Shown here: positions 1,846 to 38,745 of the stretch, one piece after another
Numbering within the stretch: the first letter of the stretch is position 1
How the letters are laid out: each line of letters opens with the position of its first letter
NCBI GenBank assembly: GCA_946410555.1
Contig: CAMKAT010000003.1
Coordinates: 5,007 to 69,006, forward strand
Source of the DNA: an uncultured Bacillales bacterium
Lineage (GTDB): Bacteria; Bacillota_I; Bacilli_A; RF39; UBA660
Length of the DNA: 64,000 nt
Reading direction: 5' to 3'
Notes under the pieces: generated by a model
Databases searched by the model: none
Told to the model about the DNA's origin: nothing
What the model saw: only the letters and a program-made list of their open reading frames with translations
Position numbers and translations under genes: made by a program

Positions 1846-1862
1846 AATTCCACTCTTCTTTA

Positions 1863-2444: not shown

Positions 2445-2454
2445 AAACTCACCT

Positions 2455-3501: not shown

Positions 3502-3555
3502 TTTATATCCTCACTTTATTAGTCTTCCTTTTTAGCATATACTGCCTTTAGAAGT

Positions 3556-3564
3556 AGTATATCA
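3556..3564 (-). promoter_or_regulatory. Extended -10 element (TGATATACT) for the interrupted gene
   Basis: Minus strand reads TGATATACT about 55 nt upstream of ATG 3501, immediately after the terminator of the upstream gene. Confidence 0.45.
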
Positions 3565-3602
3565 TAAATAAAAGAATGTAAAATAAATAATTACATTCTT
3601 TA
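3565..3602 (-). terminator. Intrinsic terminator after the 3600..4118 gene
   Basis: 10-bp perfect stem AAGAATGTAA / TTACATTCTT (3572-3581 / 3591-3600) overlaps the stop codon and is followed on the minus strand by a T-rich run. Confidence 0.6.
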
Positions 3603-4118: not shown

Positions 4119-4135
4119 ATAAACCTCACTCACGT

Positions 4136-9444: not shown

Positions 9445-9474
9445 AAATAAAAAGAACTAATAAAAATTAGTTCT
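9445..9474 (-). terminator. Intrinsic terminator after GH5 copy 1
   Basis: Stem AGAACTAAT / ATTAGTTCT (9453-9461 / 9466-9474) overlaps the TAG stop and is followed on the minus strand by TTTTATTT. Confidence 0.65.
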
Positions 9475-9586
9475 AAATATTTGTTTTAAACTTATCTTTA
9501 TTTTTTAATTCATGAATAACTAAGCTACTCATTAGAATAATTATTAAAGCTATTAAGATACAATTTTGAACTCCAGTTTTTGGATT
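9473..9586 (-). other. Cell-wall sorting signal (NPKTG motif, hydrophobic helix, basic tail)
   Basis: NPKTGVQNCILIALIIILMSSLVIHELKNKDKFKTNI has the tripartite architecture of a sortase substrate. NPKTG is a class B sortase-type motif. Confidence 0.6.
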
Positions 9587-17670: not shown

Positions 17671-17784
17671 CTACATGTTATTTTTAAATTTATCTATTCG
17701 TTTAATTAAATAAATGACTCCGGCTATTAAAGTTATTAATAAAAGACATATAAGTAAATTACTTGTTATTCCTGTCTTTGGATT
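17671..17784 (-). other. Cell-wall sorting signal (NPKTG)
   Basis: NPKTG + 22 hydrophobic residues + KRIDKFKNNM basic tail. Confidence 0.6.
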
Positions 17785-21961: not shown

Positions 21962-22607
21962 TTAATCTATAACCTATTCCTTTGACTGTTTTAATTGATG
22001 TTTCTCCAAGTTTTTCTCTGATTCTTTTTAAATAAACAGTAACTGTATGATCATCAATATAATTACCCGTCCATTCAAATACTTTGTCGAGAATGTTATC
22101 CCTGGAAACAACTGAGCCTTTATTTAAAAATAGTAAGTTAACTATTTTCAATTCTAATGGAGATAGTTCGACTTCTTTATCATCTTTAAGAAGTTTCATT
22201 GATTCAATATCATATTTTAAATTATTTATAGTTATTATTGTTTTCTTTTTATTTCTGAGTAGTATTTTATTTATTCTTGCAAGTAGTTCTTTAGTACTAA
22301 ATGGTTTAGTAATATAATCTTCAGCACCAAGATCTAAACCCTTAACAACATTGTTTTCATCATCTAAGGCAGTTAAGAATATAACAGGTATATCTTTATC
22401 CTTTAATGAATTATTAAAGAAATCAAAACCATTACCATCAGGAAGTGTTACATCTAGAACTATTAAATCAATATTTGAGTTATTTAATAAATAATTCTTA
22501 GCATCTAAGATACTAGATTTATAACTTAAATTATAATTAGTATTTTTAAATGCATATATAAGTCCTTTGATAATCATTTCATTATCTTCGATAAGTAAAA
22601 TATTCAT
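21951..22607 (-). CDS. OmpR/PhoB-family response regulator
   Basis: Receiver domain (MNILLIEDN, LIVLDVTLPDGNGF, ITKPF) plus a winged-helix C-terminus (VTVYLKRIREKLG...IKTVKGIGYRL). Confidence 0.9.
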   Translation of the reverse strand: MNILLIEDNEMIIKGLIYAFKNTNYNLSYKSSILDAKNYLLNNSNIDLIVLDVTLPDGNGFDFFNNSLKDKDIPVIFLTALDDENNVVKGLDLGAEDYITKPFSTKELLARINKILLRNKKKTIITINNLKYDIESMKLLKDDKEVELSPLELKIVNLLFLNKGSVVSRDNILDKVFEWTGNYIDDHTVTVYLKRIREKLGETSIKTVKGIGYRLNEE

Positions 22608-22647: not shown

Positions 22648-22674
22648 AATAAAAAGACAACACTAAGTGTTGTC
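22648..22674 (-). terminator. Intrinsic terminator ending the giant-paralogue operon
   Basis: 8-bp stem GACAACAC / GTGTTGTC with a 3-nt loop, 4 nt after the stop at 22678, followed on the minus strand by TTTTTATTTG. Confidence 0.7.
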
Positions 22675-22677
22675 AAT

Positions 22678-22866
22678 TTATAAAGATTTAGTTTTACCTT
22701 TATAGTAATTATATAATTTAGATACATCACTTAAATTAACTGAACTAGAATTATTAACTTTTGCAGCTTTTAAGTAATTACCAGTTAAAGTAGTTTTACC
22801 TTTATAGTAGTTATATATCTTAGATACATCACTTAAGTTAATATAACCATCTCCAGTTACATCTCC
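22678..22866 (-). other. Dockerin-like C-terminal module of copy A (62 aa)
   Basis: GDVTGDGYINLSDVSKIYNYYKGK / TTLTGNYLKAAK / VNNSSSVNLSDVSKLYNYYKGK is a duplicated 22-24-aa segment. The first loop fits the D.N.DG..N..D Ca-binding pattern; the second is degenerate. Confidence 0.55.
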
Positions 22867-25800
22867 GATAAGTACAAGTTTATATTCTGCGTTTCCAACT
22901 TTAACTGTAGTATCAGTACCAATAGCTATATTAGTGGTAATTTCAGTTCCGTTTTTAATAACTTTTATTTGATCTGTTGCTGTAATATTATTAACAAAAT
23001 CATTTCTTAAAAGCGTTTTAACAACTGGACTTACTTTAATAGTAGTAGTATCAATTGTATACTTGTTTGATGTTACTGGTGATACCTCACTATTAATACT
23101 ATTCTTAAGATGATCTACGATCATACTAGCTATTTTAACAAATCCATAATCACCAGGGTGACCCGCAATTCCATCGTTTGTTACATATAAAGTTGATCTA
23201 TTAACGTCATAGTATTTAGCTCCCATGAATGAATTTTCTCTAGCACTACTTTTGTTATATTGAATTACTTCAATATTATTGTTATCTGCAACTTCTTGCA
23301 TCTCACCAATTGTGTATACATTAACTTTAGTGTTATACATAACATAAATCTTTGCTTCCGGATATGCTTTAATAAATTCTTTTAAGAAGTAGTCAAAGTC
23401 AGATTTGAATGTTGCTCTTCGATCTTCAAAACTTCCAACATTTTCTCCAAGTTGAAGGAATACTGTTTTAGTTGGAAGATTAGGATCGATAAGTCCGTTA
23501 AACTCATCAATTATTTCTTGAGTTTTTTCTTTTCTTAACTCTGGAGTGACTGCAGATTCCCAACGGTTAACTGTAGTTCTTACAGGTTTAATATTTGGAT
23601 TTAAACTCTTTAAGTATTGAGTAACATAATAATAGTAGTCATACTCTATGTCAGTTGCAGCCATACCTTGAGAACCAAATCCTTTAGTATAAGAGTTTCC
23701 TAAGACAATTACATTTTGAGCTTCGATTGCTTTAGAGTCTTTGTTAGTATTAAATCCAAGAAGTTTAACATCCATCTTAGCATCACTAACTGTATGATTA
23801 GTAATATCAATACTAACTCCATCCATTAGGAATTCTCTTTTATATTTATCTACGAATCTATATTTAGCACCTGTGATTACATTATCACTATTACTTAATG
23901 TTTTAACTTCATAAGAACCACTATCACCATAATGAAGTTCATCAAATAATACTATATAATTTTTACCATCACCTTGGATTAAAGGTCTATAGTTTTTTAG
24001 TGGTATATAATATAGATTAGCTCCATAAGTACTCTTCATATTTTCAATAATAGATTCAAATGAAGATGGACCAAATAATTGGAATCCAACTGGACTTACA
24101 GTAGTAATAACTGTTACATCTGTTGGTAATGTAAATGATTCATTTGGAATTACTAATTTATTAAAGTTAGGTAAATCTTTAAGAGCTCCAATTTCTGCGG
24201 TAGTAATATTAGCACCTAAGACAACTGACTCAAGATACTTACAGTTCTTTAAAACAATTTCACTAAGTTTTGTAACCTTAGATGGAAATACTATAACTCT
24301 AAGTCTTGGGTTACTCATGAATGCACCAGTATTAATATTCTCTACTGATTCAGGAATATTAATAGCATCTATATATGTATAAGAAAGTGCATATGAATCA
24401 ATCGTAGTAACTAAATCACCTTCGAATGTAATGGATGTAAAGTAAGGAGATCCTCCTAACCAATTTGATGGATTAGAGAAATTGTAAGGAATCTTTGTTA
24501 CTTTAGGACCTATATAAAGTTTAATTCCTGTAGACTTCTTACCTACCATATAAAGACTCATGTTATTTGTTTTTAAACTTTTTAAACTCTTAGCATTAAA
24601 ATGGAATTCTTGTACATAGAATAAATTTGTAAATGCATAAGTACCTATATAAGTAACATTTTCATCTATAACTACTTTACTTATGTAACCCTTATATTGA
24701 TTCCAAGGAGTTTCAGATGCAGCATTATAATCTGCCATATCTCCAGACCCTGAGATTGTAAGAGTTCTTTTACTCAAATTAATTGTATAAGTAGCATTTC
24801 CTGTTGTTCCTGTAACTGTATTAGTAGGATTACTACTTGAATCATCATAAATTACAAACTCATTATCTTTTAACATTCCTTCGTTATATTTAAGTTGTTT
24901 ATTATAATCAAATAAAATCTTTTGAGTATCGTTTGAATAAATATATCCAAACAATCTACCGTTATAATTATAGAATTTATTATTTCTAATGATTGGTAAT
25001 GATTCAGCATTACTTGCGGATATATGTAACATGACTGGACCAACATATGTAGTATCATCTGGTTTTAAATTAACATTTGTTGTATCAAATATATTATTCT
25101 CAATAATATATTCTCCATTATGTTCAACCACGTTCTTTGTTTCACTAGAAACATCCCAAGCTTTTATTAATGCTTCAGTATGTCTTGGTCTTGTTTCTGT
25201 ATAACCATATCCTGAAGTTCTTAAGATATTATTTTTGATATACATTTGATTTATATATGTTTGATTAGTATATTTTGTTTCACTTGTTTCTCTAGTTTCA
25301 TTCCAATACTCAATTGCATAAGCACAATTTTCAATAACATTACCATCGAATGTCGCTTTTTCAACCTTTGATGCATGACCAGCATCAGCCGTATATTGGA
25401 AAGTTAATCCTGCATCATATATTTCATAAACATAATTGTTTTTAAGTACAAATCCATCTTTAACTGGATAACCAGTACGACTCTTTACTTCTCCATAGAT
25501 TTCTACTCCATTACCTAACCTTGTAGGTCTTCCATCATCATTATAGTATTGTTTCATACCTCCGATATAAGCAATTTCACAATTACTAATAGTTAGATTA
25601 GCAACAGTACCACCATTGATACCATGATGACCATAGAATTTAACTTCTAGATTATCTATCACAATATCAGTATAATTACCAAATGCTATACCACTATTAC
25701 CTGGAGCTATTTCTATATCGTCAAATCTTTCACCAGGGTTACCTACAGAATATAAATATAAATTTTTACCTGTTTTTTCAGCATTTGAAGCATGACCAGA

Positions 25801-26484
25801 ATGATAAAAATCTAAGTCATTAGTTAATAATTCGAAAATATTTTCATCTGTATCTTCGAATGTTTTATAAGGAATTTTCTTATCACCAAAACTATATTTA
25901 GTTTTTCCGTCAGTTGTAGTTCTTGAACAATTGTTATTACCTTTATTACAGAAGAACCAAATAGCTCCGATATCACTTGTAATAACTGCATCTTTGCCAT
26001 TTTGTTGGTACTTCCAAATATTAGGAGAAACTTCTACCCAAAGACTTGCATTTGCAGAGTTTTGAGATGGACCATAAATCTTAGGTTTACCCTTTTTAAT
26101 ATCTCCGTATGATCCTAATGTTAAACCATAAACTTGTAGTGATAAACTACCTCTGAATGTATCTCCATCATTAAATAGGATTGCATCTCCATTTTTAAAT
26201 GTTTTTGCATACATCATGTTCATTACTTTGCTTAATGATTTTATTGGTCTTTCTTTAGATAATCCATCATTTGCATCGCTACCACTTGCAGATACATAAT
26301 AAATATTACCTGTGATTTTAGTAATATCTGTATTACCATTATTTTTTATTTCATTAATTCTTGTAACTGCTAATTCCTTTATTGCCTCAGGAGTAATACT
26401 ATAAGTACTAGTCACTGAAACGATAAAAGTGGTGATAGTAAACACCAATAATGCGATAAATAATTTAAGTTTCTTTTCTCTCAT
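22678..26484 (-). CDS. Giant secreted multidomain protein, copy A: beta-helix + BspA-type LRR + SGNH-like esterase + C-terminal dockerin-like module
   Basis: ATG 26484 (GAGGTG SD 9 nt upstream) is preferred over track GTG 26496. Signal peptide; IYYVSASGSDANDG...GDAILFNDGDTFRG; YEIYDAGLTFQY; ISGSGDMADY..PW...VTYIGTYAF; LGNS / QLGEN / GHPGDYG; tail GDVTGDGYINLSD. Confidence 0.8.
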   Translation of the reverse strand: MREKKLKLFIALLVFTITTFIVSVTSTYSITPEAIKELAVTRINEIKNNGNTDITKITGNIYYVSASGSDANDGLSKERPIKSLSKVMNMMYAKTFKNGDAILFNDGDTFRGSLSLQVYGLTLGSYGDIKKGKPKIYGPSQNSANASLWVEVSPNIWKYQQNGKDAVITSDIGAIWFFCNKGNNNCSRTTTDGKTKYSFGDKKIPYKTFEDTDENIFELLTNDLDFYHSGHASNAEKTGKNLYLYSVGNPGERFDDIEIAPGNSGIAFGNYTDIVIDNLEVKFYGHHGINGGTVANLTISNCEIAYIGGMKQYYNDDGRPTRLGNGVEIYGEVKSRTGYPVKDGFVLKNNYVYEIYDAGLTFQYTADAGHASKVEKATFDGNVIENCAYAIEYWNETRETSETKYTNQTYINQMYIKNNILRTSGYGYTETRPRHTEALIKAWDVSSETKNVVEHNGEYIIENNIFDTTNVNLKPDDTTYVGPVMLHISASNAESLPIIRNNKFYNYNGRLFGYIYSNDTQKILFDYNKQLKYNEGMLKDNEFVIYDDSSSNPTNTVTGTTGNATYTINLSKRTLTISGSGDMADYNAASETPWNQYKGYISKVVIDENVTYIGTYAFTNLFYVQEFHFNAKSLKSLKTNNMSLYMVGKKSTGIKLYIGPKVTKIPYNFSNPSNWLGGSPYFTSITFEGDLVTTIDSYALSYTYIDAINIPESVENINTGAFMSNPRLRVIVFPSKVTKLSEIVLKNCKYLESVVLGANITTAEIGALKDLPNFNKLVIPNESFTLPTDVTVITTVSPVGFQLFGPSSFESIIENMKSTYGANLYYIPLKNYRPLIQGDGKNYIVLFDELHYGDSGSYEVKTLSNSDNVITGAKYRFVDKYKREFLMDGVSIDITNHTVSDAKMDVKLLGFNTNKDSKAIEAQNVIVLGNSYTKGFGSQGMAATDIEYDYYYYVTQYLKSLNPNIKPVRTTVNRWESAVTPELRKEKTQEIIDEFNGLIDPNLPTKTVFLQLGENVGSFEDRRATFKSDFDYFLKEFIKAYPEAKIYVMYNTKVNVYTIGEMQEVADNNNIEVIQYNKSSARENSFMGAKYYDVNRSTLYVTNDGIAGHPGDYGFVKIASMIVDHLKNSINSEVSPVTSNKYTIDTTTIKVSPVVKTLLRNDFVNNITATDQIKVIKNGTEITTNIAIGTDTTVKVGNAEYKLVLIGDVTGDGYINLSDVSKIYNYYKGKTTLTGNYLKAAKVNNSSSVNLSDVSKLYNYYKGKTKSL

Positions 26485-26503
26485 AACTATCACCACCTCT
26501 TTT

Positions 26504-26692
26504 CTATATGTTGTTTATTTTACCTTTATAAAAATTATAAAGCTTTGAAACATCTCCAAGCACTACTGATGATGATTCAGTAATCCTTCCTGCTTCTAAA
26601 TAATCTCCTGTTAAAGTTGTTTTCTTTTTATAGGAATTATAAAGTTTTGAAACATCACTTAGATTAATAATTCCATCACCAGTTACGTCTCC
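26504..26692 (-). other. Dockerin-like C-terminal module of copy B (62 aa)
   Basis: GDVTGDGIINLSDVSKLYNSYKKK...ITESSSVVLGDVSKLYNFYKGK. Confidence 0.55.
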
Positions 26693-29600
26693 TCTTACTA
26701 TAACTTTATACTCTATATCTTTAACCTTTACTTTAGAACCGGTACCAACATATGTATTAGTATCAAGTTTTACTCCACCAACATAAATATCATAATCATA
26801 ATCTGATGTAATATTATTTTTAAGTTCATTTCTCATGTAATTCTTAGAAGTTGGTTTTGCAATGATTGTTTTATTTTGAATTTTATACTTAGTAGATTTA
26901 ATTTCTATTGTTTTAGTATCTAAATTACTCTTTAAATAATCTATTGCCATATTAGCTAAGTTTAAGCTTCCATAATCATTTGGATGGCAGGCTACTCCTT
27001 CATTTGTAACATATGCAGCCTTATTAGATGCATTATAATATTTAGCACCAATAAATGTTTCATATCTTTTAGATGCACCTTTATATCCTCCATATAATGT
27101 AGCATCTACATTATATTTACTTGCTACATTTAAAAGTGGAGTCTTTATATTACTTGGTAACCAATGAGGATAAAGAATAATTATTTTTGCATTTGGATAT
27201 GCTTTTTGGAATTCTGAAATCATATAATCAAATGATGATTCAACATTTACTTGTCTTTCAGGAAAGCTTGCATTAGCTAAGTTTTCACCAAGTTGAATAA
27301 AGAATAAATCTACATTATTTGGATCATCAATCTTTGCATTATATTGACTGATTAAATTTTGAACTTCAGCATTTCTATCTACTGGTATATAAGTTGTAGG
27401 TGTCGTAGAATAGTCTCCTTTTCTTACTTCTTCCCAATGATTAATTGCTAATCTATATGATTTAACATTTGGACTTAAACTCTTTAAATATTGATTCATG
27501 TAATGATAATAATCAGTATCAACATCGGTTGATCCCATAGAATGTGTTGCCCAACCAATTAAAAATGAGTTACCTAAATATAATACATTCTTAGCATCAA
27601 GTATCTTATTATCTTTATTATAAATATTTCCGGTTAATTCAACATCCATATAAATATTACTTAAAGTATTACTATTTAAATCAATGTTTGGTCCATCAAA
27701 TAAATATTTGTGTTTAAACCTATCAATATATCTATATTTCGCTCCCGTTATATTAACTGATGCATTAGCAAGTGCTTTTACTTCATAAGTAGTAGATTCA
27801 CCATAATGGAAATCATCATATAATGCATAGAATGTTTTACTATCTCCCCAAATCATTGGTCTATAGTAAGTATCTAGAGAAACATAATAAGCATTTACTC
27901 CGATTGACTTAAGTGAATTTACTACAGTTTCAATACTTTGAGGTCCAAAGAATTGAATACCAGTTGATTCAAATGGAACTTTATAAGTTGTTACATTATT
28001 TTCAGTTGTAGTTGTAATACCAAATACATTAGCTGATGGATCGAAATTAAAGTTAGGATTTGTAATTACAAGTCTTTCTAAATGTTTAAGATTACTTAAC
28101 GAATTAGCATTTAATGTTGTTAAATTTTTACCTAAGATAACAACTTCTAGATTATAGCAACTACCAATTACATTTCCATTAAGTGTAGTAAGATTATCTG
28201 GTAGTTTTGCAACTTTTAAACCTCGGTTATAGAAGAATGCACCATATCCAATACTTGTAACACTTTCAGGTAATAATAAAAATTCAAATGATAAATATGC
28301 AAATGAATATTTACCTATCGTTGTTACTTTATTACCTTTGAATTCGTATTCAGTAATATTAGGTGTAAAATCTTTAGTGGACTTTTTAAGCTTCTCTTTT
28401 TCTTCTTGAGTTAGTGATACTGGAAATAATAAATAATCAGGAATCATAGTAACATTTGCTCCAATTATAATCTTAGTTCCAGCAGTAGATCTACCTACTC
28501 TAGAGAAAGCATAGTTTTTATTTGCAAGATTGCTTGCAGTCTTTGCATTATAATTTATAATTTTAACATACTCTAATCCTTCGAAAGCATAATTTCCTAT
28601 CTTAGTTACATTCTCATCAATTGTAATAGTCTTAATATATTCTTTATATTGATGCCATGGTGCTACACTTGATTCAGTATAGTCTGCCATTGCACCACTA
28701 CCAGATATTTTAAGTTCTAATGTTTTAAAGTTTAATGTCCATGTTGCACTTCCGGTAGTACCTGAGATTTTATCAGTTCTTCTTGAAGGTTCATCAAATA
28801 TATAGAATTCATTACCTTCGAAATATCCTTCGGTATTTTTTACCATACTATTGTAAGGAATAAATGCTCTAACATTATCTGATGATCCAATTTGACCTAA
28901 ATTTCTATTACTATAATTATAGAATTTATTATTTTTAAATACTGGCAATGACTCTATATTAGTTGTATCAATATGAAGCATCCAAATTCCAGTTAATACT
29001 CCATATTTATCTTTAAGTTGTCCTGTTGTATCAAATATATTATTTTCAATAATAAATTCGTTTTTGACTCTATTCCAAGATTCTGAACCACCATCCCAAG
29101 CTTTGATTAATGCTTCGTAACCATGTTCTGGTCTTACTTCAGTGAATCCCATACCAGCATATCTTAAAATATTATTAGTAAAATAAATGTTACCTAAATA
29201 TGTTTCTTTAATTAATTCTTGATTAGTTGCTTCATTAGTACCATTCCAATATTCTATGTTGTAACTACAATATTCTACGACATTATTATCATAAGTTAGT
29301 CTTTCAACTCTGTTTTTCTTGCCCTCTGCTGCAGTATATTGGAAAGTTAATCCAGCATCATATATCTCATATATGTAATTATTTCTTGCAACATATCCAT
29401 CTTTTACAGTATATCCATTAATATTATCAATTGCTCCATAAGATTGAATACCATTACCTAATCTTAATCCCCAATGACCATCTGCATCATATTTTTGAGT
29501 CATTCCACCAATATAACTAATTTCACAATTAGTAACAGTAACATTAGCTACATTATTAATAGCTATGGCATGTCTTCCAAAGAAACTTATTTCTAAGTTA

Positions 29601-30433
29601 TCAATAATAGTATCTGAATAATTTCCTACTTTAATTCCGTTATCACCAAGAGATATTTCAATATCATCAAATCTAGTACTTGGATTACTAGTAGAATAAA
29701 GATATAAAACACCACCAGTAGTTGATGATTCACAAGCATGACCCATATGATAGAACTGTAAGTCTTTAGTTAATTGAGAAACTGCAAATGATTCTGATTC
29801 AGTTACATTATCATTAGACATTCTCTTATCACCAAAACTATATTTAGTTTTTCCATCAGTTGTAGTTCTTGTACAATTATTATTACCACTCTTACAGAAG
29901 AACCAAATAGCTCCAACATCTTTAGGGAATTTTTTATCTTTTCCATCTACTTGGTATTTCCATACATTACCTGATACTTTTACCCAAGAACCTGTCGTAG
30001 CAGCATTTGCTTCAGATCCATGAATCTTAGGTTTTCCTTTAGATATTGTTCCATATGAACCGAATAAAATATTATGATCTTTAAGTGTTAAATTACTACC
30101 TTTGAATGTATCACCATCTCTAAATAGAACTGCATCACCTTTTTTAATTGTTTTATTACCAAGTAATTCATTTACTTTTGCTGTAGTTTTTAGTGGTTTA
30201 CTTTGTGATTTTCCATCATTTGAATCATTACCATCATTAGATACATAATAAATAGTACCTGTTACTTTAGATACATCTGTATTTTGTGTAGATCTAATCT
30301 CGTTTATTCTTGTCTTTACTAAAGAAGTAATTGAACTATTATCTGTGATAGAAAGTGAATTACTTCCAGACAATAAAAAAAGAGATAAAGAAAATACTAG
30401 TAAACATACCATTACCTTGTATTTCTTCTTCAT
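26504..30433 (-). CDS. Giant secreted multidomain protein, copy B (same architecture)
   Basis: ATG 30433 (GAGGTG SD 6 nt upstream) is preferred over track GTG 30442. IYYVSNDGNDSNDG; YEIYDAGLTFQY; ISGSGAMADY..PW; LGNS / QLGEN / CHPNDYG; tail GDVTGDGIINLSD. Confidence 0.8.
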   Translation of the reverse strand: MKKKYKVMVCLLVFSLSLFLLSGSNSLSITDNSSITSLVKTRINEIRSTQNTDVSKVTGTIYYVSNDGNDSNDGKSQSKPLKTTAKVNELLGNKTIKKGDAVLFRDGDTFKGSNLTLKDHNILFGSYGTISKGKPKIHGSEANAATTGSWVKVSGNVWKYQVDGKDKKFPKDVGAIWFFCKSGNNNCTRTTTDGKTKYSFGDKRMSNDNVTESESFAVSQLTKDLQFYHMGHACESSTTGGVLYLYSTSNPSTRFDDIEISLGDNGIKVGNYSDTIIDNLEISFFGRHAIAINNVANVTVTNCEISYIGGMTQKYDADGHWGLRLGNGIQSYGAIDNINGYTVKDGYVARNNYIYEIYDAGLTFQYTAAEGKKNRVERLTYDNNVVEYCSYNIEYWNGTNEATNQELIKETYLGNIYFTNNILRYAGMGFTEVRPEHGYEALIKAWDGGSESWNRVKNEFIIENNIFDTTGQLKDKYGVLTGIWMLHIDTTNIESLPVFKNNKFYNYSNRNLGQIGSSDNVRAFIPYNSMVKNTEGYFEGNEFYIFDEPSRRTDKISGTTGSATWTLNFKTLELKISGSGAMADYTESSVAPWHQYKEYIKTITIDENVTKIGNYAFEGLEYVKIINYNAKTASNLANKNYAFSRVGRSTAGTKIIIGANVTMIPDYLLFPVSLTQEEKEKLKKSTKDFTPNITEYEFKGNKVTTIGKYSFAYLSFEFLLLPESVTSIGYGAFFYNRGLKVAKLPDNLTTLNGNVIGSCYNLEVVILGKNLTTLNANSLSNLKHLERLVITNPNFNFDPSANVFGITTTTENNVTTYKVPFESTGIQFFGPQSIETVVNSLKSIGVNAYYVSLDTYYRPMIWGDSKTFYALYDDFHYGESTTYEVKALANASVNITGAKYRYIDRFKHKYLFDGPNIDLNSNTLSNIYMDVELTGNIYNKDNKILDAKNVLYLGNSFLIGWATHSMGSTDVDTDYYHYMNQYLKSLSPNVKSYRLAINHWEEVRKGDYSTTPTTYIPVDRNAEVQNLISQYNAKIDDPNNVDLFFIQLGENLANASFPERQVNVESSFDYMISEFQKAYPNAKIIILYPHWLPSNIKTPLLNVASKYNVDATLYGGYKGASKRYETFIGAKYYNASNKAAYVTNEGVACHPNDYGSLNLANMAIDYLKSNLDTKTIEIKSTKYKIQNKTIIAKPTSKNYMRNELKNNITSDYDYDIYVGGVKLDTNTYVGTGSKVKVKDIEYKVIVRGDVTGDGIINLSDVSKLYNSYKKKTTLTGDYLEAGRITESSSVVLGDVSKLYNFYKGKINNI

Positions 30434-30457
30434 CTCTTTCACCTCAATTCTAAGTTG

Positions 30458-31459
30458 TTATTTTTTAATTACTACAATTAAAAGATAAGCTAAACCAATC
30501 ATTCCAGCTACGCTTCCAACAATTTTAGCAACTTTAATAATTGTTGCTTTAGTATCAGCTTTAGCCTTTTTATTAATGTTTAATTTGTAAGTAGTAGATT
30601 CACCTTCATAAGTTACTACTACTTCAATTTTATTCATTCCTTCAACTAATTTATCAGAACTAATTTTTACTGTTGCATTTTCTTTATATGGTTTATAACT
30701 AAATTCTAAATTTGTAATATCTGAAGTTATTTCAATGTTATATTCAGTTTTATCACTATTAAAATCAAATTTAACACCTTTGATTGTTAATGATGCAAGT
30801 TTTGTATTTGAATCAGTTCTTGGGCTTGGTGCTAAAGTTGTAGTTTCATCTGTTACTGGTTCAGTAGCTTCTGTTGTAGGTTCTTCGGTTGGAGTACCAG
30901 TTGTTGGTTCTTCTCTAGGATTTTGAGCTTGAGTTGTACCTTGAGTTGGTTGTGTACCAGCTGGAGCTGTAGTTCCTTGAGTTGGTCTTTGAGTTGCTTG
31001 TGTTGGTTTAGTAGTCGCTTGAGTTGGATTACTAACTGCAATATTCTTTGATATTGTACCAGCATTAACTGTGTTATATTGACCACTTGAATTTATAGAA
31101 ACAAATTTAGCATCATTAACTTTAAAAGTCATTGTTCCTGCTTGAGTTGCTTTAATAACATAAGTTACAAATGTAACTCCATTAGGATCTTCTTCGTTTA
31201 TACATGTAAATTCACTATTAGTAACTGCCCCAGTTCCTAATTGAATACAAGATCCTACTGTAAAACTTTGAACTGTACCATTGTCAACATGAATTTTCCC
31301 TTCGCCACCACCAATTTTATTAGCTGAAGCTTTAACAGAGCATTTTGTTGTACCTCCAACTGTTAACGAATAAGATGTACAACTGATATCCATAGAATCA
31401 GCTTTTGCACTAATTGGAATAAGTATAAGTGCTAGTATAATAAGTATTTTTTTCTTCAT
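30458..31459 (-). CDS. Membrane-anchored surface protein: signal peptide, cohesin-like beta-sandwich, Thr/Pro/Gln linker, cadherin-like beta-sandwich, C-terminal TM anchor
   Basis: 333 aa. YSLTVGGTTKCSVKASANKIGGGEGKIHVDNGTVQSFTVGS...VTYVIKATQAGTMTFKVN; PTQATTKPTQATQRPTQGTT linker; KLASLTIKGVKFDFNSDKTEYNIEI...GMNKIEVVVTYEGESTTYKLNI; C-terminus IVGSVAGMIGLAYLLIVVIKK. Its GGAGA SD overlaps the stop of copy C. Confidence 0.7.
   Translation of the reverse strand: MKKKILIILALILIPISAKADSMDISCTSYSLTVGGTTKCSVKASANKIGGGEGKIHVDNGTVQSFTVGSCIQLGTGAVTNSEFTCINEEDPNGVTFVTYVIKATQAGTMTFKVNDAKFVSINSSGQYNTVNAGTISKNIAVSNPTQATTKPTQATQRPTQGTTAPAGTQPTQGTTQAQNPREEPTTGTPTEEPTTEATEPVTDETTTLAPSPRTDSNTKLASLTIKGVKFDFNSDKTEYNIEITSDITNLEFSYKPYKENATVKISSDKLVEGMNKIEVVVTYEGESTTYKLNINKKAKADTKATIIKVAKIVGSVAGMIGLAYLLIVVIKK
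30845..31033 (-). repeat. Low-complexity Thr/Pro/Gln-rich linker (imperfect PTQ[AG]T repeats)
   Basis: PTQATTKPTQATQRPTQGTTAPAGTQPTQGTTQAQNPREEPTTGTPTEEPTTEATEP. It also creates two spurious overlapping track ORFs. Confidence 0.7.
31040..31396 (-). other. Cohesin-like domain (residues ~22-140)
   Basis: This is a pattern-level resemblance only to type I cohesins: an N-terminal VGxT..V.V strand, I.G..G.I.(Y/V)D mid motif, and an alternating beta pattern ending in a T(F/I)KV strand. No profile search was run. Confidence 0.35.
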
Positions 31460-31469
31460 AATGTTCTCC

Positions 31470-31661
31470 TTAATCTAAATTAGTTGTTTTTCCTTTGTAA
31501 TAATTATATAATCTCGACACATCACCGAGAGTTACTGAACTAGATCCCGTTATTTTTGCAGCTTCTAGTTGTTCAACATTAAGTGTTGTTTTCTTTTTGT
31601 AGTAGTTATAAACCTTAGAAACATCACTTAAATTAATAACTCCATCGCTTGTTACATCACC
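31470..31661 (-). other. Dockerin-like C-terminal module of copy C (63 aa)
   Basis: GDVTSDGVINLSDVSKVYNYYKKK...ITGSSSVTLGDVSRLYNYYKGK. Confidence 0.55.
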
Positions 31662-34600
31662 TTTTAGAATAATCTTCAAAGCGTACGATCCACTCTTAAG
31701 AGTATAACCTGTTCCTATGTACACGTTCGATGTTACCTCGTTATTATTTAAATTATACAACAAAATTGAGTTAGATGAAACAATATTATTCAATAATGTA
31801 TCTCTATTTAGCATTTTACTTGTTGGTTTTGCCTTAATATATTTGCTTGTCACTTGGTATTTAGTTGATTTTATAGAATCTAGATTACCATAATCATGTT
31901 CTTTTAAATACGAAACAACTTTATCTGCGATAGCTATAAATCCATAGTTACCAGGATGTGTCTCTCCACCACCAGCTTGAAGTATTTTTCTCATTCCAAC
32001 ATTTGTAATATATTTATCTCCAACGAATGAAGTATTTCTATTACATGAACTTGGTGTTACTCCTCTGAAAGGTTTCTTAGTAACTCCTCTATAAACACCT
32101 GAGTAATCAATTAACTCAATTCCAGTTGCTTCAGTAGCAGCTTGAATAGCAGCAATATTTTGTGAGTAATTATACCAACCAAATAAATAATATATTTTTG
32201 TTTCAGGGAATTCTTCTTTTACTCTATTAATTAAATAGGTAATATCAGTTTGGAATGTTATTCTTCTAGCAGCTGAATTAACATTATCTCCAAGTTCCAA
32301 GAATATTGTTTTAACTGGATTTGGTCCTTTATTATTCTTAATAGCATTAATAAACTTTTCAGCTTCAGCATTTCTTTCTTCAGAAGTTTCATATCCTTCC
32401 CAAGGGTTAGCTGTATATTTAACTGTTGTTAAATTAGGATTCATACTCTTTAAGTATTGCATTACATAATAGTAATAATCATCTTGAGTTGTTGTTGATG
32501 CCATACCATGTGTATCAAAACCTCTTAATAATGAATTTCCTAAGAATACAACTGTTTGATCATCAATCGAACGATGTGCATCATCAGATACTGTTCCTTC
32601 GAGTTCAACATCTAACATAATATTTGATATTGTATTACCACTCATATTAACACCATCTACTAAATGATAATGTTTTTGTGCATCCATATATCTATATTTA
32701 GCACCAGTAACAGTTACACTACTTGCATTAGATAACGATTTAACTTGATATGTAGTATTTTCATTAATATAAGCTTCATCATGAAGTGCATAGAATGTTT
32801 TATGATCACCATATACTACTGGTCTATAATAAATCAAATCTACATATTTTATTATCTCACTACCAACTTGTTCATTAGCAGCATCAACGAATGCTTTAAT
32901 TGAAGATGGTCCAAATATTCTCAATTGATATAAACCATTGAAATTATTAATTGGATTATTCGTAGAATCAAATGCGAAATCTACATTTTGTATTACTAAA
33001 CATTCTAATCTTGTACTATTGTATAAAGCTTCAACTCCTAGAGATACCGTTTTTTCTCCTAGGATAACTGTTTCAAGATGAGTACATCCTCTTAACATCT
33101 TATTAGGTACATTTACTACATTATTTGATAATACAAATAATTTCATTACCTTACAATTAGCAAATGCAGCTTCTCCGATAGTTTCAACACTATCAGGTAT
33201 AACCATATCAGTCATTAAAAGGAAAGTGAATGCATAACTTCCAATTGTTTTAACTTTATTTCCTTTGAACACTACTTTCTTAATGTTTGGTGCACTTGTA
33301 GAAGACGATGTTGCATTTCCTAAATATCCAGGAATATTTGTAACTTCAGGTCCAAATGTTAATGTAGCACCTGTTGCCCAAACACCTGCATTTCTAAATG
33401 CAGCGTTTCCACCAGTCATATTCTTTAAATTTTTAGAATTAATTACTATATCATTAATGTATTTAAGATCATTAAATGCATACTTACCAATCTTAGTAAC
33501 ATCTTCTCCGATTACTATCTTATGAATATAATTTGAATAACTACTCCATGGTGGAAGTGAATCTACTGTATAATCAGCCATATCACCAGAACCTGAGATT
33601 GTAAGTGTATGATTATTTAAGTTCAGTGACCAAGATGTACTTCCTGATGTACCACTCTTAGTACCAGTCGGATCACTTAAACCATCATATGCATAGAATT
33701 CATTATCTTTTAACCAATTCGTATCATATTTAAGTTGTGTACTATAAGGAATAGCTCCAACTGTCCAGTTAGTTGCTTCAGATGAACTTATTCTTCCTAA
33801 GTTTCTTGAAGTATAATTATAGAATCTATTATTTCTTACTGTTGGTATTGATTCTTCATAACCTGCAGTTAAATGTAACATCCAAATACCAACATCATTA
33901 CCTTTATTATCTTTTAATACTCCGGTAGTATCAAAAATATTATTTTCAATTAAGAATTCACCATTCATTGCAAGTTTATTATGGGCTGTTTCATGTCCAC
34001 CATCCCAAGCTTTTATTAATGCTTCATAACCATGTTCAGGTCTTGTTTCGGTGAATCCCATACCTGCGAATCTCATTATGTTATTTCTAAAATAAATTTT
34101 ATTTAAATATGTTCTATCTATACTTTTTAACCATTCACTTGTTATGGTTTCTGGTTTATTAACATCATTCCAATATTCAATGTTATAACTTGCATATTCA
34201 ATTACGTTATTATTAAAATCTACCTTTTCAACTGCTGAACTACCATCAGCTGCTGCAGTATATTGAAAAGTTAATCCAGCATCATATACTTCATAGATAT
34301 ATGAGTTTTCTACAACATAGCCTTCATCAACACTATAGTTATTTTTTGATGTAACACTTCCATATATTTCAACCGCATTACCTAATCTTAATGCCCAGTG
34401 ACCTTCAGCGTCATATTTTTGCACCATACCACCAATGTAAGACAATTCACAGTTTGATACTTTTAAGTTAGCAGTAGTTCCTGAATTAACACCATGACGA
34501 CCAGCATGTCTTATATCCAAGTTATCTACAACTAAATTAGTAATGCCTGCAGCATATATTCCACTGGTACCAACATTAAATTCAATTTCATCAAATCTAC

Positions 34601-35366
34601 TTGCTGGATTAGTGGCAGAATATACATATAAAGCACCACCAGTAGCAGAATTACCATTAGGATGTCCATAATGCATAAACTCTAAATCATGTTTTAAATA
34701 ATTACTAATATCCGCTTCTGTCTCTACGATATCATCATTAATTAATTTTTTTTGAGATATTTTATATTTTCTATCTCCCATGGTAGTAGTTCTATCACAA
34801 TTATTATTACCAGATTTACAGAAAAACCAAATTTCTCCGATATCTTTCTTAAATACTTGATCACTACCATCAACTGTATATTTCCAAATATTATTTTTAA
34901 CTTTTACCCATTCGCCAGTTTTTGTTCCATCATATGTTGACACATTAATGATTGGCTTAGCTTTTTTAGTATCACCATAAGAACCTAATGTTATGTTATT
35001 TTTTGAAACTGTTAATTGACCTCTGAATTCATCTCCCCTACGGAATAGAATAGTATCGCCTGCTGCTAAACCAGTTCCATTTATCAATTTTTGAACTCTA
35101 GAAAGTGTTTTAAAAGGTTTGTCTTCTGATTTACCATTATTAGTATCATCACCATCAGCTGATACATAGAAAACTTGACCAGTTCTTTTAGATATATCAG
35201 TATTACCTGTTGCTCTTATTTCTTTAATTCTTTGTTTAGTTAGATTAGTAACTTCAGTTTGAAGTGCAGTTTCCGAAAAAGTGTAACCAATAAAGAATGA
35301 GAGACTAAAAGCTATAATTGCACACACCATTACAATTAATACTTTTTTGTTTCTCATATATCTCAT
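31470..35366 (-). CDS. Giant secreted multidomain protein, copy C (same architecture)
   Basis: ATG 35366 (AGGAAG SD 11 nt upstream) is preferred over track GTG 35375, which is 2 nt from the SD. VFYVSADGDDTNNG; YEVYDAGLTFQY; ISGSGDMADY..PW; LGNS / ELGDN / THPGNYG; tail GDVTSDGVINLSD. Confidence 0.8.
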   Translation of the reverse strand: MRYMRNKKVLIVMVCAIIAFSLSFFIGYTFSETALQTEVTNLTKQRIKEIRATGNTDISKRTGQVFYVSADGDDTNNGKSEDKPFKTLSRVQKLINGTGLAAGDTILFRRGDEFRGQLTVSKNNITLGSYGDTKKAKPIINVSTYDGTKTGEWVKVKNNIWKYTVDGSDQVFKKDIGEIWFFCKSGNNNCDRTTTMGDRKYKISQKKLINDDIVETEADISNYLKHDLEFMHYGHPNGNSATGGALYVYSATNPASRFDEIEFNVGTSGIYAAGITNLVVDNLDIRHAGRHGVNSGTTANLKVSNCELSYIGGMVQKYDAEGHWALRLGNAVEIYGSVTSKNNYSVDEGYVVENSYIYEVYDAGLTFQYTAAADGSSAVEKVDFNNNVIEYASYNIEYWNDVNKPETITSEWLKSIDRTYLNKIYFRNNIMRFAGMGFTETRPEHGYEALIKAWDGGHETAHNKLAMNGEFLIENNIFDTTGVLKDNKGNDVGIWMLHLTAGYEESIPTVRNNRFYNYTSRNLGRISSSEATNWTVGAIPYSTQLKYDTNWLKDNEFYAYDGLSDPTGTKSGTSGSTSWSLNLNNHTLTISGSGDMADYTVDSLPPWSSYSNYIHKIVIGEDVTKIGKYAFNDLKYINDIVINSKNLKNMTGGNAAFRNAGVWATGATLTFGPEVTNIPGYLGNATSSSTSAPNIKKVVFKGNKVKTIGSYAFTFLLMTDMVIPDSVETIGEAAFANCKVMKLFVLSNNVVNVPNKMLRGCTHLETVILGEKTVSLGVEALYNSTRLECLVIQNVDFAFDSTNNPINNFNGLYQLRIFGPSSIKAFVDAANEQVGSEIIKYVDLIYYRPVVYGDHKTFYALHDEAYINENTTYQVKSLSNASSVTVTGAKYRYMDAQKHYHLVDGVNMSGNTISNIMLDVELEGTVSDDAHRSIDDQTVVFLGNSLLRGFDTHGMASTTTQDDYYYYVMQYLKSMNPNLTTVKYTANPWEGYETSEERNAEAEKFINAIKNNKGPNPVKTIFLELGDNVNSAARRITFQTDITYLINRVKEEFPETKIYYLFGWYNYSQNIAAIQAATEATGIELIDYSGVYRGVTKKPFRGVTPSSCNRNTSFVGDKYITNVGMRKILQAGGGETHPGNYGFIAIADKVVSYLKEHDYGNLDSIKSTKYQVTSKYIKAKPTSKMLNRDTLLNNIVSSNSILLYNLNNNEVTSNVYIGTGYTLKSGSYALKIILKGDVTSDGVINLSDVSKVYNYYKKKTTLNVEQLEAAKITGSSSVTLGDVSRLYNYYKGKTTNLD

Positions 35367-35395
35367 CTTGATCACTACTTCCTATTGTTAATTAA

Positions 35396-35404: not shown

Positions 35405-35438
35405 AAAAACAATAAAAAATGGAACTATAAAGTTCCAT
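35403..35438 (-). terminator. Intrinsic terminator after the FtsX-type permease gene
   Basis: Stem ATGGAAC / GTTCCAT (35419-35425 / 35432-35438) abuts the stop codon and is followed on the minus strand by TTTTTTATTGTTTTTT. Confidence 0.7.
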
Positions 35439-38071
35439 TAAATATTATCATTTCTAATTGTTTCTATGATATTTTGATTTTTACACTTATTAACCGAGTA
35501 ATTCATTATTATAGAAATAAGCAAAAATACTCCGATTGAAGATATAATTATAGGCTTAACAGGAATTGAATAAGTTATTATTCCTTGGTTAAATGATTTA
35601 TATACTATATATGAAAGTCCAATACCTAAAGGTATACCAAATAATAATGATTTAATACCAATAAATAAACTTTCTAAACGAATCATATTATTGAATTCTT
35701 TCTTAGTCATACCAATTGACTTTAACATTGCAAATTCTTGTCTTCTTAAATTTATGTTAGAAGTAATTGTATTAAAGATATTAGTAATACCAATTAATGT
35801 AATTACAGTAATAAATCCATAAAGGAATATACCAATAAGTAATACTACATTTTGCATTTCTCTTACATTTTCATCTTTATTACTTAAAGTAAATTCTTCA
35901 CCCTTAAGAATATTTTCTAATTCATCTTGAGTTTTGATAGCATCACTTGATTGAATATTTATATTGATTGAAGTACTTCTAATGTTTTCATCTTTAAATA
36001 ATTCTTTCTTAAAGATATTCTTTTCAGCAGTTTTATTAATAAACATATAGTTTGTTCCTACTTCACTACCAACAAATCCAAATGGAAGTGTTTCTGTGAT
36101 TGTACCAATTTTTAAATCTACAACTTTACCTTTGATAGTATCTCCAGCTTTATAGTTAAAGGTATCTATTTTCTTTTTATTATTAGTAGTTTTACTATAG
36201 TTATAACACATTACTTTATTAACAAATACTCCAGCTTTATCATAATCTTTTGAAGATTCACCAAGACTATTCAAATAATCATTAAATGATTCGTCATCTA
36301 AAACTATTACATCAATATATGGTTCATAATATTGGTAATCATCACCTTTGAATTTTTTAAATTCTTCATTTACTTTTCCTTTTACAATATCAGTATCAAC
36401 ATCAAAATATACTGTATATTCTAGAGATAACTTTTCTACTCCAGTTACATTTTTTAAATCTAAATATTTTTTATATGTTTCATCAGTAGGATTAGTAATT
36501 GAAACATCAATATTATGATCACTTGCATTTACTTCTTCTTTAACAGAATCAATAGCTATCCCCATGAAGTATGATAATGCAATAAATACTGAAGTTGAAA
36601 TAACTATAGAAACAACTGTAGTTCTAAATTTTCTTTTATTTCTCTTCATGTTTTTAAAACTGATTTCTCCACCAATTTTAAAGATTTTAGAAATAATCTT
36701 AGGGCATTTAAGACTTCTTTTCTTTATCTTAATGTTACCACTGTTTCTTATTGATTCGATTGGAGATACCCTGGATGCTTTAAATGCACTTTTTAGAGCT
36801 GATAAATAAATAGTTATCATTCCTAAAATAATAGAAACCAATATTGCTAACCAAGATATAGAGAATCTTAATACTAAATCTTCACTATAAGAATTAGATA
36901 GTAATTTATTTGAAATAATCATTAAAATAAATGATGCAAATAATCCTAAGAATACTCCTAATGGAATACCAATGATTCCTAAGATTGATGCTTCATATAA
37001 TACATTCTTTCTTATTTGTCTCTTAGTAGATCCAATACTTCTTAACATACCATATTGTTTTATTTTTTCTGTAATAGAAATATCAAAACTATTCTTAATA
37101 CAGAATACAGAACATACAACAATTATTATTAATACAATAGCTACAACTCTTGAAAGGTCTCCCATAGCAGATCCTTGGATTGGATTTTTTTGAAGTCCAA
37201 TTAAATATTGATTAATATCAAATTTTGTATATTTCATGTTAGATTCTACTCTATCAAATATTTTTTCTGCTTCTTCAGTAGATATATCCGAAAATTTTCC
37301 ATTAATATATCTATCGAAGTCTTTTCTATCTACACCTTCAATATCAGCAAAGATATTGTAAGCATCTTTCATTTTATCTCTTTTAATAGTTAAATAAGCT
37401 GTTACTGAATCATTCTCATTAAATTCTTTTTTATAAGTAATAAAAGTATAACCAGGAGCTGAGTATGGCTCTATTGATGAAGATACTCTTCCTCCGATAC
37501 CAACAATTGTGTATTCTTTTTTTACTGTATCAACTAGTTCTTCACCTTCATGATCATATGGGTTGTTTTGGGTTAATTCTTCTGAGCCAGCCATTCTTTT
37601 ACCAACATTTAAAGTTATTTTATCTCCGATGTTTAATGACACTCTTCCGTTTGTACGAAGATGAGTTGGAATTACGACTTCAGAATCATTTTCTGGAAGT
37701 CTTCCTTCTTTAAGTTTAATTGGAAGTGTATTAAGTGCATCTTTATTAAGTGCAGTAATCGCAGCATATGGTTTATCTTTATTTTGAGATTTAATATCTG
37801 CATAACCGATAAGTTTTGATTCACTTACTTTTTCAACTGATTCATTTAGTTTCATTCTATCTATATCTGATTTAGTTACATCTCTAAATAAATAGTGATA
37901 GTTACCTGTTATTTTTATTTCATAATCTTCGATGGATTTTAAACCACTCATGTAAACTGTAGATACTGCAGTTAAAAGAGCAATAGATAAAATAATACCA
38001 ATGATAGTTACAATAGTTCTTTTCTTATTCAGTTTAAGATTTTTAATAGTTAATTTATTAAGTAAGTCCAT
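35438..38071 (-). CDS. ABC transporter permease with tandem FtsX/MacB-type modules (8 TM, two large extracytoplasmic domains)
   Basis: 877 aa. Two repeats of TM + ~250-aa loop + 3 TM. FtsX-type segments GMLRSIGSTKRQI and AMLKSIGMTKKEF. Confidence 0.8.
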   Translation of the reverse strand: MDLLNKLTIKNLKLNKKRTIVTIIGIILSIALLTAVSTVYMSGLKSIEDYEIKITGNYHYLFRDVTKSDIDRMKLNESVEKVSESKLIGYADIKSQNKDKPYAAITALNKDALNTLPIKLKEGRLPENDSEVVIPTHLRTNGRVSLNIGDKITLNVGKRMAGSEELTQNNPYDHEGEELVDTVKKEYTIVGIGGRVSSSIEPYSAPGYTFITYKKEFNENDSVTAYLTIKRDKMKDAYNIFADIEGVDRKDFDRYINGKFSDISTEEAEKIFDRVESNMKYTKFDINQYLIGLQKNPIQGSAMGDLSRVVAIVLIIIVVCSVFCIKNSFDISITEKIKQYGMLRSIGSTKRQIRKNVLYEASILGIIGIPLGVFLGLFASFILMIISNKLLSNSYSEDLVLRFSISWLAILVSIILGMITIYLSALKSAFKASRVSPIESIRNSGNIKIKKRSLKCPKIISKIFKIGGEISFKNMKRNKRKFRTTVVSIVISTSVFIALSYFMGIAIDSVKEEVNASDHNIDVSITNPTDETYKKYLDLKNVTGVEKLSLEYTVYFDVDTDIVKGKVNEEFKKFKGDDYQYYEPYIDVIVLDDESFNDYLNSLGESSKDYDKAGVFVNKVMCYNYSKTTNNKKKIDTFNYKAGDTIKGKVVDLKIGTITETLPFGFVGSEVGTNYMFINKTAEKNIFKKELFKDENIRSTSININIQSSDAIKTQDELENILKGEEFTLSNKDENVREMQNVVLLIGIFLYGFITVITLIGITNIFNTITSNINLRRQEFAMLKSIGMTKKEFNNMIRLESLFIGIKSLLFGIPLGIGLSYIVYKSFNQGIITYSIPVKPIIISSIGVFLLISIIMNYSVNKCKNQNIIETIRNDNI

Positions 38072-38073
38072 AA

Positions 38074-38745
38074 TTAAACCTCCTTAACAATATGTCCATC
38101 TTCGATTTTTATTATTCTATCTGCAACTTTAGCAATTTCCATATTATGAGTAATCATAATAATTGTTTGTTTGTAATCTTTGTTAGATTTTTTAAGTAAA
38201 GCTACAATTTCATCACTAGATTTAGAATCTAGGTTACCAGTTGGTTCATCTGCAAGTACGATTGTTGGATGAGTAATAAGTGCTCTACCTATTGAAACTC
38301 TTTGTTGTTGTCCACCAGATAATTCATTTGGTAAATGTTTCTTTCTTCTTTCTAAACCTAGAAGTTTAATTAAATCTTCAAGTTCTTCTTTATCTACTTT
38401 TCTATTATCTAATGATAATGGTAAAGTAATGTTTTCTTCAGCATTAAGAATAGGAATTAAATTATAAAATTGATAAATTAATCCTACTTGTCTTCTTCTG
38501 AAAATTGCTAATTTTTCATCATTTAAATTAAATATATCTTCACCATTAATATATACTTTTCCAGAAGTAGGTCTATCTACTCCTCCAAGAATATGAAGTA
38601 ATGTTGATTTACCAGAACCAGATGCACCAACAATTGCAACAAACTCTCCTTTATTTACCTTAAAACTGACATCATCAAGTGCTCTTACTTCAGTTGATCC
38701 TTTTCCATAAACTTTAGTTAAATTTTCTACCTTTAATATTTCCAT
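38074..38745 (-). CDS. ABC transporter ATP-binding protein (MacB/LolD-type)
   Basis: Walker A GASGSGKSTLL, Q-loop, signature LSGGQQQRVSIGRAL, Walker B VLADEPTGNLD. Confidence 0.9.
   Translation of the reverse strand: MEILKVENLTKVYGKGSTEVRALDDVSFKVNKGEFVAIVGASGSGKSTLLHILGGVDRPTSGKVYINGEDIFNLNDEKLAIFRRRQVGLIYQFYNLIPILNAEENITLPLSLDNRKVDKEELEDLIKLLGLERRKKHLPNELSGGQQQRVSIGRALITHPTIVLADEPTGNLDSKSSDEIVALLKKSNKDYKQTIIMITHNMEIAKVADRIIKIEDGHIVKEV

Follow-up and report, generated by a model that had tools for sequence, protein, structure and literature searches.

A putative membrane-anchored mono-cohesin protein encoded among X-module-dockerin proteins in a small genome of an uncultured member of the Bacillota

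The mono-cohesin surface anchor ScaE of Ruminococcus flavefaciens receives partners that carry an X-module and a dockerin, namely ScaB and CttA. In Clostridium thermocellum, OlpA and OlpC (structures 3ul4 and 4dh2) each present a single type I cohesin at the surface, where enzyme dockerins are received directly with no polyvalent scaffoldin, and both proteins are anchored through S-layer homology (SLH) repeats. Cohesin-dockerin pairing outside cellulosomes is represented by cohesins of Archaeoglobus fulgidus (2xdh) and of glycoside hydrolases (GH) from C. perfringens (2vo8 from a GH33 enzyme, 2jh2, and 2w1n). Sortase and SLH are the anchoring routes given in a review (PMC12484212), according to which ScaE is linked covalently to the wall through an LPXTG sortase signal. 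Single-cohesin proteins anchored by a transmembrane (TM) helix have been predicted as well, in Ruminococcus spp. HUN007, JE7B6, zg921, and zg924 (PMC13463774) and in Lachnoclostridium sp. MSJ-17, H. luporum, and C. cibarium (PMC11557425). Here we analyzed a gene for a 333-aa protein, located at 30458..31459 on the minus strand of a 64,000-nucleotide stretch of DNA (the window) from an uncultured Bacillales bacterium (contig CAMKAT010000003.1). The analysis indicated that this protein is probably a membrane-anchored, stalk-borne mono-cohesin that displays proteins carrying X-module-dockerin (X-dockerin) units.

The 333-aa protein resembles ScaE as a candidate mono-cohesin surface anchor for X-dockerin partners, but it has a conserved TM helix in place of the LPXTG signal. 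It is similar to OlpA and OlpC in its single cohesin, whereas SLH anchoring sets those two proteins apart from an organism in whose genome no SLH domain was found. The A. fulgidus and C. perfringens cohesins were its best structural matches (query TM-score, TMq, 0.63-0.69); those of C. perfringens sit inside secreted enzymes and join enzymes, whereas the present cohesin sits on a dedicated predicted membrane anchor. As described in the two reports (PMC11557425 and PMC13463774), the predicted TM-anchored proteins share with it one cohesin, a C-terminal TM helix, and a proposed anchor in the bilayer that uses neither SLH repeats nor sortase. Compared with those proteins, however, the present one comes from a different lineage with a much smaller genome, its cohesin is of a distinct family that Pfam does not detect and in which a Cys pair is invariant, it has a Thr/Pro linker and a cadherin-like stalk, and its candidate partners carry, in many cases N-terminally, an X-module and a dockerin in which one Ca loop is degenerate. 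The TM-anchored mono-cohesin architecture is already known; the locus introduces no new principle and is a condensed form of an established display system. The new elements are a cohesin family invisible to Pfam and marked by a Cys pair, the stalk, X-dockerins placed at either the N- or the C-terminus, the dockerin subtype with a single Ca loop, and the ratio of 13 candidate partners to one anchor in 1.36 Mb.

The architecture of the protein was examined first; all coordinates in this paragraph are on the minus strand. In the open reading frame listing the gene ends with a stop codon at 30458-30460. A signal peptide was assigned to residues 1-21 (MKKKILIILALILIPISAKA/DS; 31397..31459) by reading the sequence: a hydrophobic peak at residues 4-23, the second of the protein, precedes an AKA motif. 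In the AlphaFold model of the full-length protein, two folded domains are separated by a disordered linker. The first, a divergent all-beta cohesin domain of 124 aa, covers residues 22-145 (31025..31396). The Thr/Pro/Gln-rich linker covers residues 146-216 (30812..31024; pLDDT 26-37), and the compositional run to which it belongs extends over residues 144-216, that is, 73 aa with 33% T, 16% P, and 11% Q. The first-pass annotation had described a PTQ[AG]T-rich linker of about 60 aa; its presence and composition were right, but its length was underestimated. The second folded domain, at residues 217-299 (30563..30811), is a cadherin-like beta-sandwich that would form the membrane-proximal stalk module. 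Its assignment to this family, proposed earlier from the style of the sequence, was borne out by a match to Pfam PF12733 at residues 221-297 (30.8 bits, E 4e-7), which passes the gathering cutoff of 24.2. A basic, Lys-rich juxtamembrane segment (residues 300-312) is followed by the TM helix and a KK tail (residues 313-333; together 30461..30562), and the C-terminus reads ...IVGSVAGMIGLAYLLIVVIKK. The 19-residue Kyte-Doolittle maximum of the protein, 2.55, falls on residues 313-331, and small residues in this helix are spaced as G315xxxG319xxG322. The layout is that of a TM-anchored mono-cohesin, with a signal peptide, exactly one cohesin, a C-terminal TM helix, and a short tail predicted to be cytoplasmic. 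A role of C27 as a lipoprotein Cys was also considered and was rejected, since the residues leading up to it (D-I-S-C) are unlike a lipobox and strand 1, to which it belongs, is part of a domain modeled with confidence.

No LPXTG/NPXTG-like or [LNS]PxT[GNAD]-type motif was found near the C-terminus, NCBIfam gave no match to a C-terminal sorting signal in the 333-aa protein, and SLH repeats were absent from the protein and from the whole genome. With neither a sorting motif nor SLH repeats, the protein falls outside classical sortase or SLH anchoring. Two earlier statements, that the protein ends in a single TM helix with a short basic tail and that it lacks LPXTG/NPKTG motifs and SLH repeats, therefore held, the former by the hydropathy maximum and the KK end, the latter by the motif scan, NCBIfam, Pfam, and the genome-wide SLH scan. 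The genome (1.36 Mb, 93.7% complete, about 27% GC) has the PolC type that serves as a marker of Bacillota. It gave four sortase matches and two penicillin-binding protein (PBP) transpeptidase matches, so the organism is walled and the sortase route is available to it. The plain reading of the sequence would be direct anchoring in the membrane.

The N-terminal domain was then compared with solved cohesins. A model of the domain alone, made with a 43-sequence alignment, had a pLDDT of 96.3 and a pTM of 0.88. In a Foldseek search of the Protein Data Bank (PDB), ranks 1-18 were all cohesins (TMq 0.56-0.69), as were 37 of the top 50 matches, and the full-length model gave the same picture. The cohesins found span types I, II, and III as well as non-cellulosomal ones; the best were 2xdh, 2vo8, 4ums (type I), and 5n5p (type III), ranks 1-18 also included 4dh2, 2jh2, 1qzn, and 6kgc, and both 3ul4 and 4dh2 were among the fold matches. 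The predicted fold is therefore that of a cohesin, not a generic Ig/Big fold. Profile-profile comparison by hhalign gave the same result: the 43 family domains aligned with 30 Pfam-passing cohesin domains, taken from genomes of the same bacterial family as the host, at 97.8% probability (E 7.7e-13, 119 of 122 columns), whereas the same profile aligned with 193 cadherin-like domains of the same proteins at a probability of 1%. An earlier comparison of five close homologues with the four sub-threshold cohesin-like domains of the genome had reached only 59%, and it was superseded by the deeper profiles on both sides. The cohesin-like module named in the first-pass annotation is thus supported by structure and by profile-profile tests, and we conclude with high confidence that the domain is a genuine, strongly diverged cohesin homologue.

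Six relatives of the 333-aa protein were found among 5.8 billion proteins. Five of them are full length and share its architecture, each with a single cohesin-like domain (5/5); the sixth is a fragment without an N-terminus that keeps the stalk and the TM helix, so that the TM anchor is retained in all six. The TM helix with its KK end is the most conserved part, with 76-86% identity to the orthologues, in comparison with 32-61% for the cohesin domain. This conservation argues for a retained, functional membrane segment, and the faster divergence of the cohesin domain fits what might be expected of a rapidly co-evolving binding domain. When 1.84 billion cluster representatives were searched with a profile, 169 proteins were found at E ≤ 1e-3, in which the domain sits nearly always directly after the signal peptide. 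C27 and C40 are invariant across the wider family alignments and not in the Pfam-passing cohesins compared, while a second pair, C71 and C86, is specific to the subfamily. One or more cadherin-like domains are present in 58 of 100 family members. A relative from another genus (G096, 31% identity) has three such domains and a TM helix.

The Pfam-passing cohesin proteins of the bacterial family were also inspected. Most have a TM segment downstream of the cohesin, and in thirteen complete proteins of 420-640 aa the TM segment lies near the C-terminus. The TM route is unusual for textbook cellulosomes, as had been noted at first, but a TM segment after the cohesin is common in this lineage. When species-representative genomes were scanned with the alignment of the full-length proteins, only a cadherin-like match was returned, and a single-sequence search of 101 genomes of the bacterial family returned only two relatives. 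Because so few relatives were found in these scans, presence/absence co-occurrence with dockerins was uninformative, and gene adjacency was used.

In the window the anchor gene belongs to a unit of four genes on the minus strand, together with one large paralogue upstream (A, 1301 aa, 31470..35375) and two downstream (B, 1312 aa, 26504..30442; C, 1272 aa, 22678..26496). The intergenic gaps are 10, 15, and 7 nt. A consensus scan placed terminator-like hairpins on the minus strand at 35418..35439, upstream of gene A and past a MacB/FtsX permease gene, and at 22656..22674, where the hairpin after gene C closes the unit; only six such sites were found in the 17.5 kb scanned. The 7-15-nt gaps and the bounding terminators support an operon reading of the four genes. 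The three paralogues are mutually 44-48% identical (B is 47-48% identical to A and C), and each contains a weak right-handed beta-helix, a solid BspA-type leucine-rich repeat (LRR) region, a weak GDSL/SGNH region, and a C-terminal dockerin. Pfam scores were 75.6 bits (LRR_5), 22.6 (Dockerin_1), and 21.2 (Beta_helix) for A, 69.9 bits (LRR_5) for B, and 63.2 bits (LRR_5), 28.4 (Dockerin_1), and 21.5 (GDSL_2, under its cutoff) for C.

An X-dockerin-ending gene was directly adjacent at all eight informative loci of the domain family (the window, L004/L005, L007, L018 of G096, L049, L050, L051, and L052), over a range of 20-60% sequence identity. Orthologous metagenome loci, two of them from sheep rumen, have the order ABC permease, large protein(s), small protein, large protein(s), response regulator. 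The number of large paralogues varies, with one in L049, two in L004, and three in the window and L007, and each ends in an X-dockerin. The gene of the G096 relative comes directly after one for a 1506-aa LRR protein, and the X-dockerin of that protein keeps two canonical loops. Distant family members, including two with NPETG sortase signals, also directly follow an X-dockerin-ending gene wherever upstream sequence could be examined. In the wider bacterial family, the X-dockerin unit was present in 72 of the 101 sampled genomes and a Pfam-passing cohesin in 27, and for 13 of 33 Pfam-passing cohesin matches an X-dockerin match lay no more than 5 kb away and on the same strand. In nine of these 13 the dockerin ends 90-161 nt ahead of the start of the cohesin domain, the spacing expected for a stop codon, a short gap, and a signal peptide; the distance in the window is 77 nt. 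The gene pair of an X-dockerin-ending protein followed by a signal peptide-cohesin-stalk-TM protein is a standard module of this lineage, and bona fide cohesin genes hold the same position in related genomes. The 333-aa protein occupies the cohesin slot. A Pfam-passing cohesin and an X-dockerin were also seen within one open frame of 2873 aa in a related genome (G064:C5:14736-15809, plus strand), whose product may be adaptor-type or self-associating.

The C-terminal units of the three neighbors were located at 31473-31892 (A), 26507-26926 (B), and 22681-23100 (C). Each dockerin is preceded by a conserved module of about 75 aa (S-x-x-Y-x-I...IxAxPT...Y-x-I-V), so the unit is an X-module plus dockerin of about 140 aa. 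By hmmscan, PF00404 (Dockerin_1) passed in C, stayed just below the cutoff of 22.9 in A, and gave no match in B; the genome scan scored C at 34.1 bits and A at 27.5. The dockerins of A, B, and C align over the whole module, and a dockerin-subtype model built in this analysis, which includes the tails of A, B, and C themselves, gave 107-110 bits for all three (109 bits for B). The sequence of the first Ca loop, DVTGDGxINLSD, is canonical, whereas that of the second, K/R-[IV]-[TN]-x-S-S-S-V-x-L-[GS]-D, is degenerate, with Asp1 replaced by Lys/Arg and Asp5 by Ser, so two EF-hand-like Ca-binding loops were not found in the dockerins of A-C. Whereas symmetrical type I dockerins bind in a dual mode, the degenerate second loop suggests a single binding mode.

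Three candidate ligands had been proposed from the flanking genes with dockerin-like tails. These three tails were confirmed, but the count was too low: 13 full X-dockerin units were found in the genome, all belonging to one tight subtype (175-212 bits; the best in any other genome was 90 bits). Three of them are the C-terminal copies of A, B, and C. The other ten, on contigs C15, C9, C47, C1, and C14, are N-terminal and directly follow the signal peptide, a placement that is uncommon for enzyme dockerins. Some of their carriers are GH5 enzymes (Pfam Cellulase, 122 bits) that also contain DUF285-type repeats, two of them in tandem on C9; the others are beta-helix proteins and a fourth paralogue of A-C. 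The ten genes outside the window are dispersed and have no cohesin-like neighbor, and the genome encodes no second member of the cohesin subfamily to which the 333-aa protein belongs. The simplest reading would be one shared type of anchor for all 13 X-dockerin proteins. The earlier suggestion that enzymes compete or exchange on one site would, with 13 such proteins and one subfamily member, amount to a shared pool of anchors.

Taken together, we consider the following model probable. The protein would be exported by the Sec pathway and its signal peptide cleaved, whereas the C-terminal helix (residues 313-331) would stay in the membrane with the KK end in the cytoplasm. The cadherin-like domain and the 73-aa Thr/Pro-rich linker would together make a stalk of sufficient length to span the wall, and the N-terminal 124-aa divergent cohesin would bind the X-module-dockerin units of secreted proteins. 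Each anchor would hold one protein, so that the set would serve as a shared pool of surface attachment points. The ligands would be the three co-operonic paralogues and about ten dispersed proteins with N-terminal X-dockerins.

Several observations weigh against this model. PF00963 did not match the 333-aa protein or any of 100 family members at E ≤ 0.01, the protein matched no cohesin in NCBIfam or in a phmmer search of PDB sequences, and profiles of 5 and of 43 relatives found no cohesin among the PDB sequences. Because all sequence-level searches failed, the cohesin link is made only by fold and profile-profile comparison, and TM-scores of 0.6-0.7 at a root-mean-square deviation of 4-6 Å denote the same fold, not an identical binding face. 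This lack of a sequence-level signature would suit a protein with a cohesin-like fold that is not a dockerin receptor but acts on its own as a surface adhesin or as a stalk protein that binds carbohydrate, its neighbors being co-expressed but not bound. The non-cohesin beta-sandwiches that appear from Foldseek rank 19 on, including the CLIPPER adhesin domain, BslA, and Als adhesins, would agree with such a role, as would the C27/C40 pair, which is confined to the alignments of this family when Pfam-passing cohesins are compared. It is nevertheless unlikely, in view of the 97.8% profile-profile match to real cohesins against 1% in the control, the X-dockerin adjacency at 8/8 loci, and the bona fide cohesins in the same gene position in related genomes. 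The anchor itself was questioned by the wider family. A hydrophobic C-terminal segment was present in 103 of 150 relatives, and in 38 of the 150 an NPxTG-type motif stands just ahead of a tail similar to that of the 333-aa protein, so TM and sortase anchoring both occur in the family. At the corresponding alignment position, the closest outgroup (P0009) has NPKTD. With four sortase matches in the genome, the C-terminal helix and KK might be a degenerate or non-canonical sorting signal that is cleaved, the protein being wall-linked or shed, and given its NPxTG-bearing relatives a cryptic processing route for the 333-aa protein is conceivable. The juxtamembrane segment, on the predicted extracellular side, is also very basic, and charge alone leaves the topology unfixed. 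However, a cleaved sorting signal is very unlikely here: the 333-aa protein and its six close relatives have the TM helix only, with no Pro-containing sorting motif, no C-terminal sorting domain was found in it by NCBIfam, and identity of 76-86% in the helix and KK would be unexpected for a signal that is discarded.

The choice of ligands was weighed in the same way. Binding may be atypical, judging from the degenerate second Ca loop, also read as K-V-T-N-N-S-S-V-x-L-x-D, and some X-dockerins could in reality pair with another cohesin-like membrane protein. The genome encodes four other cohesin-like, TM-anchored proteins, one on contig C1 (264 aa), two on C2, and one on C12, and overall identity between the C-terminal and the N-terminal group of X-dockerins is only about 40-45%. 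The anchor might therefore bind only the three co-operonic paralogues, while the ten dispersed proteins would use another receptor, such as the 264-aa protein on C1 or the pair on C2. We regard this restricted set of ligands as rather unlikely, because the dockerin helices are near-identical in both groups (GDVTGDGxIxLSDVSKLYNxYK ... LGDVSKLYNxYKGK) and the cohesin-like proteins on C2 and C12 adjoin dockerins clearly different from the X-dockerin subtype. The protein on C1 has no dockerin gene directly beside it. The proximity of the C2 and C12 proteins to different dockerins suggests that there are probably at least three orthogonal cohesin-dockerin sets in the genome. Returning to the shared anchor, the conservation of the TM helix and its G315xxxG319xxG322 spacing, a type of motif able to pack helices, prompted the idea that the anchors oligomerise in the plane of the membrane and form a multivalent platform. 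Such a functionally polyvalent scaffoldin, loaded from 13 X-dockerin proteins through a single Ca site, is decidedly unlikely; if it were true, oligomeric anchors would be a distinct, membrane-assembled route to a cellulosome-like complex in a 1.4-Mb genome.

The surroundings of these genes were also recorded. The four-gene unit is flanked by a MacB/FtsX-type ABC exporter (an 877-aa permease and an ATPase; 35438-38745) and by an OmpR-type response regulator and histidine kinase pair (20759-22607), and this flank order is kept in L004 and L049, whose anchors are about 37-49% identical to the 333-aa protein. Two GH5 genes without an X-dockerin lie in the window on the minus strand at 9473-11332 and 17671-19491 (Pfam Cellulase, 77-79 bits), which shows that the organism also has non-docked GH5 enzymes. 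On contig C12, a 646-aa protein (3391-5331, minus strand) with SH3_3, cadherin-like, and canonical dockerin (61 bits) domains is directly followed by a 568-aa protein (1673-3379, minus strand) with a signal peptide, cohesin-like and cadherin-like domains, a TM helix, and a highly charged tail of about 150 aa predicted to be cytoplasmic. On contig C2 (7061-39515, minus strand), tandem 750- and 561-aa cohesin-like/cadherin-like TM proteins (PF00963, 22.7 and 20.1 bits) are flanked by giant proteins (3770, 2912, and 2372 aa) that bear dockerins. Contigs C17, C22, C28, C29, and C35 contain several frames of 3,500-4,900 aa packed with cadherin-like repeats. The codon CGG was found in frame once among 284,054 codons of the genome (open reading frames of at least 300 aa), in comparison with 29 CGC, 83 CGA, and 319 GGG, while the trinucleotide CGG occurs 2,713 times on both strands. 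None was found in frame in the four genes, so their translations are independent of any unusual decoding of CGG, such as is suspected for this kind of genome.

The presence of X-dockerins in 72 and of Pfam-passing cohesins in 27 of the 101 genomes indicates that standard annotation misses many cohesins. The same argument was recently made for Ruminococcus, where many cohesins are described as visible only to structure prediction (PMC13463774). The domain family of about 170 clusters could be added to cohesin models. One 124-aa cohesin with 13 natural candidate partners, in a genome with at least two other apparently orthogonal sets, would make a small test system that could serve studies of specificity and designer scaffolds, and the single-Ca-loop dockerins would allow a direct test of whether one working Ca loop suffices for binding. 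For the organisms themselves, the finding would extend cohesin-dockerin display to a large family of Bacillota, uncultured inhabitants of gut and rumen whose genomes are about 1 Mb in size.

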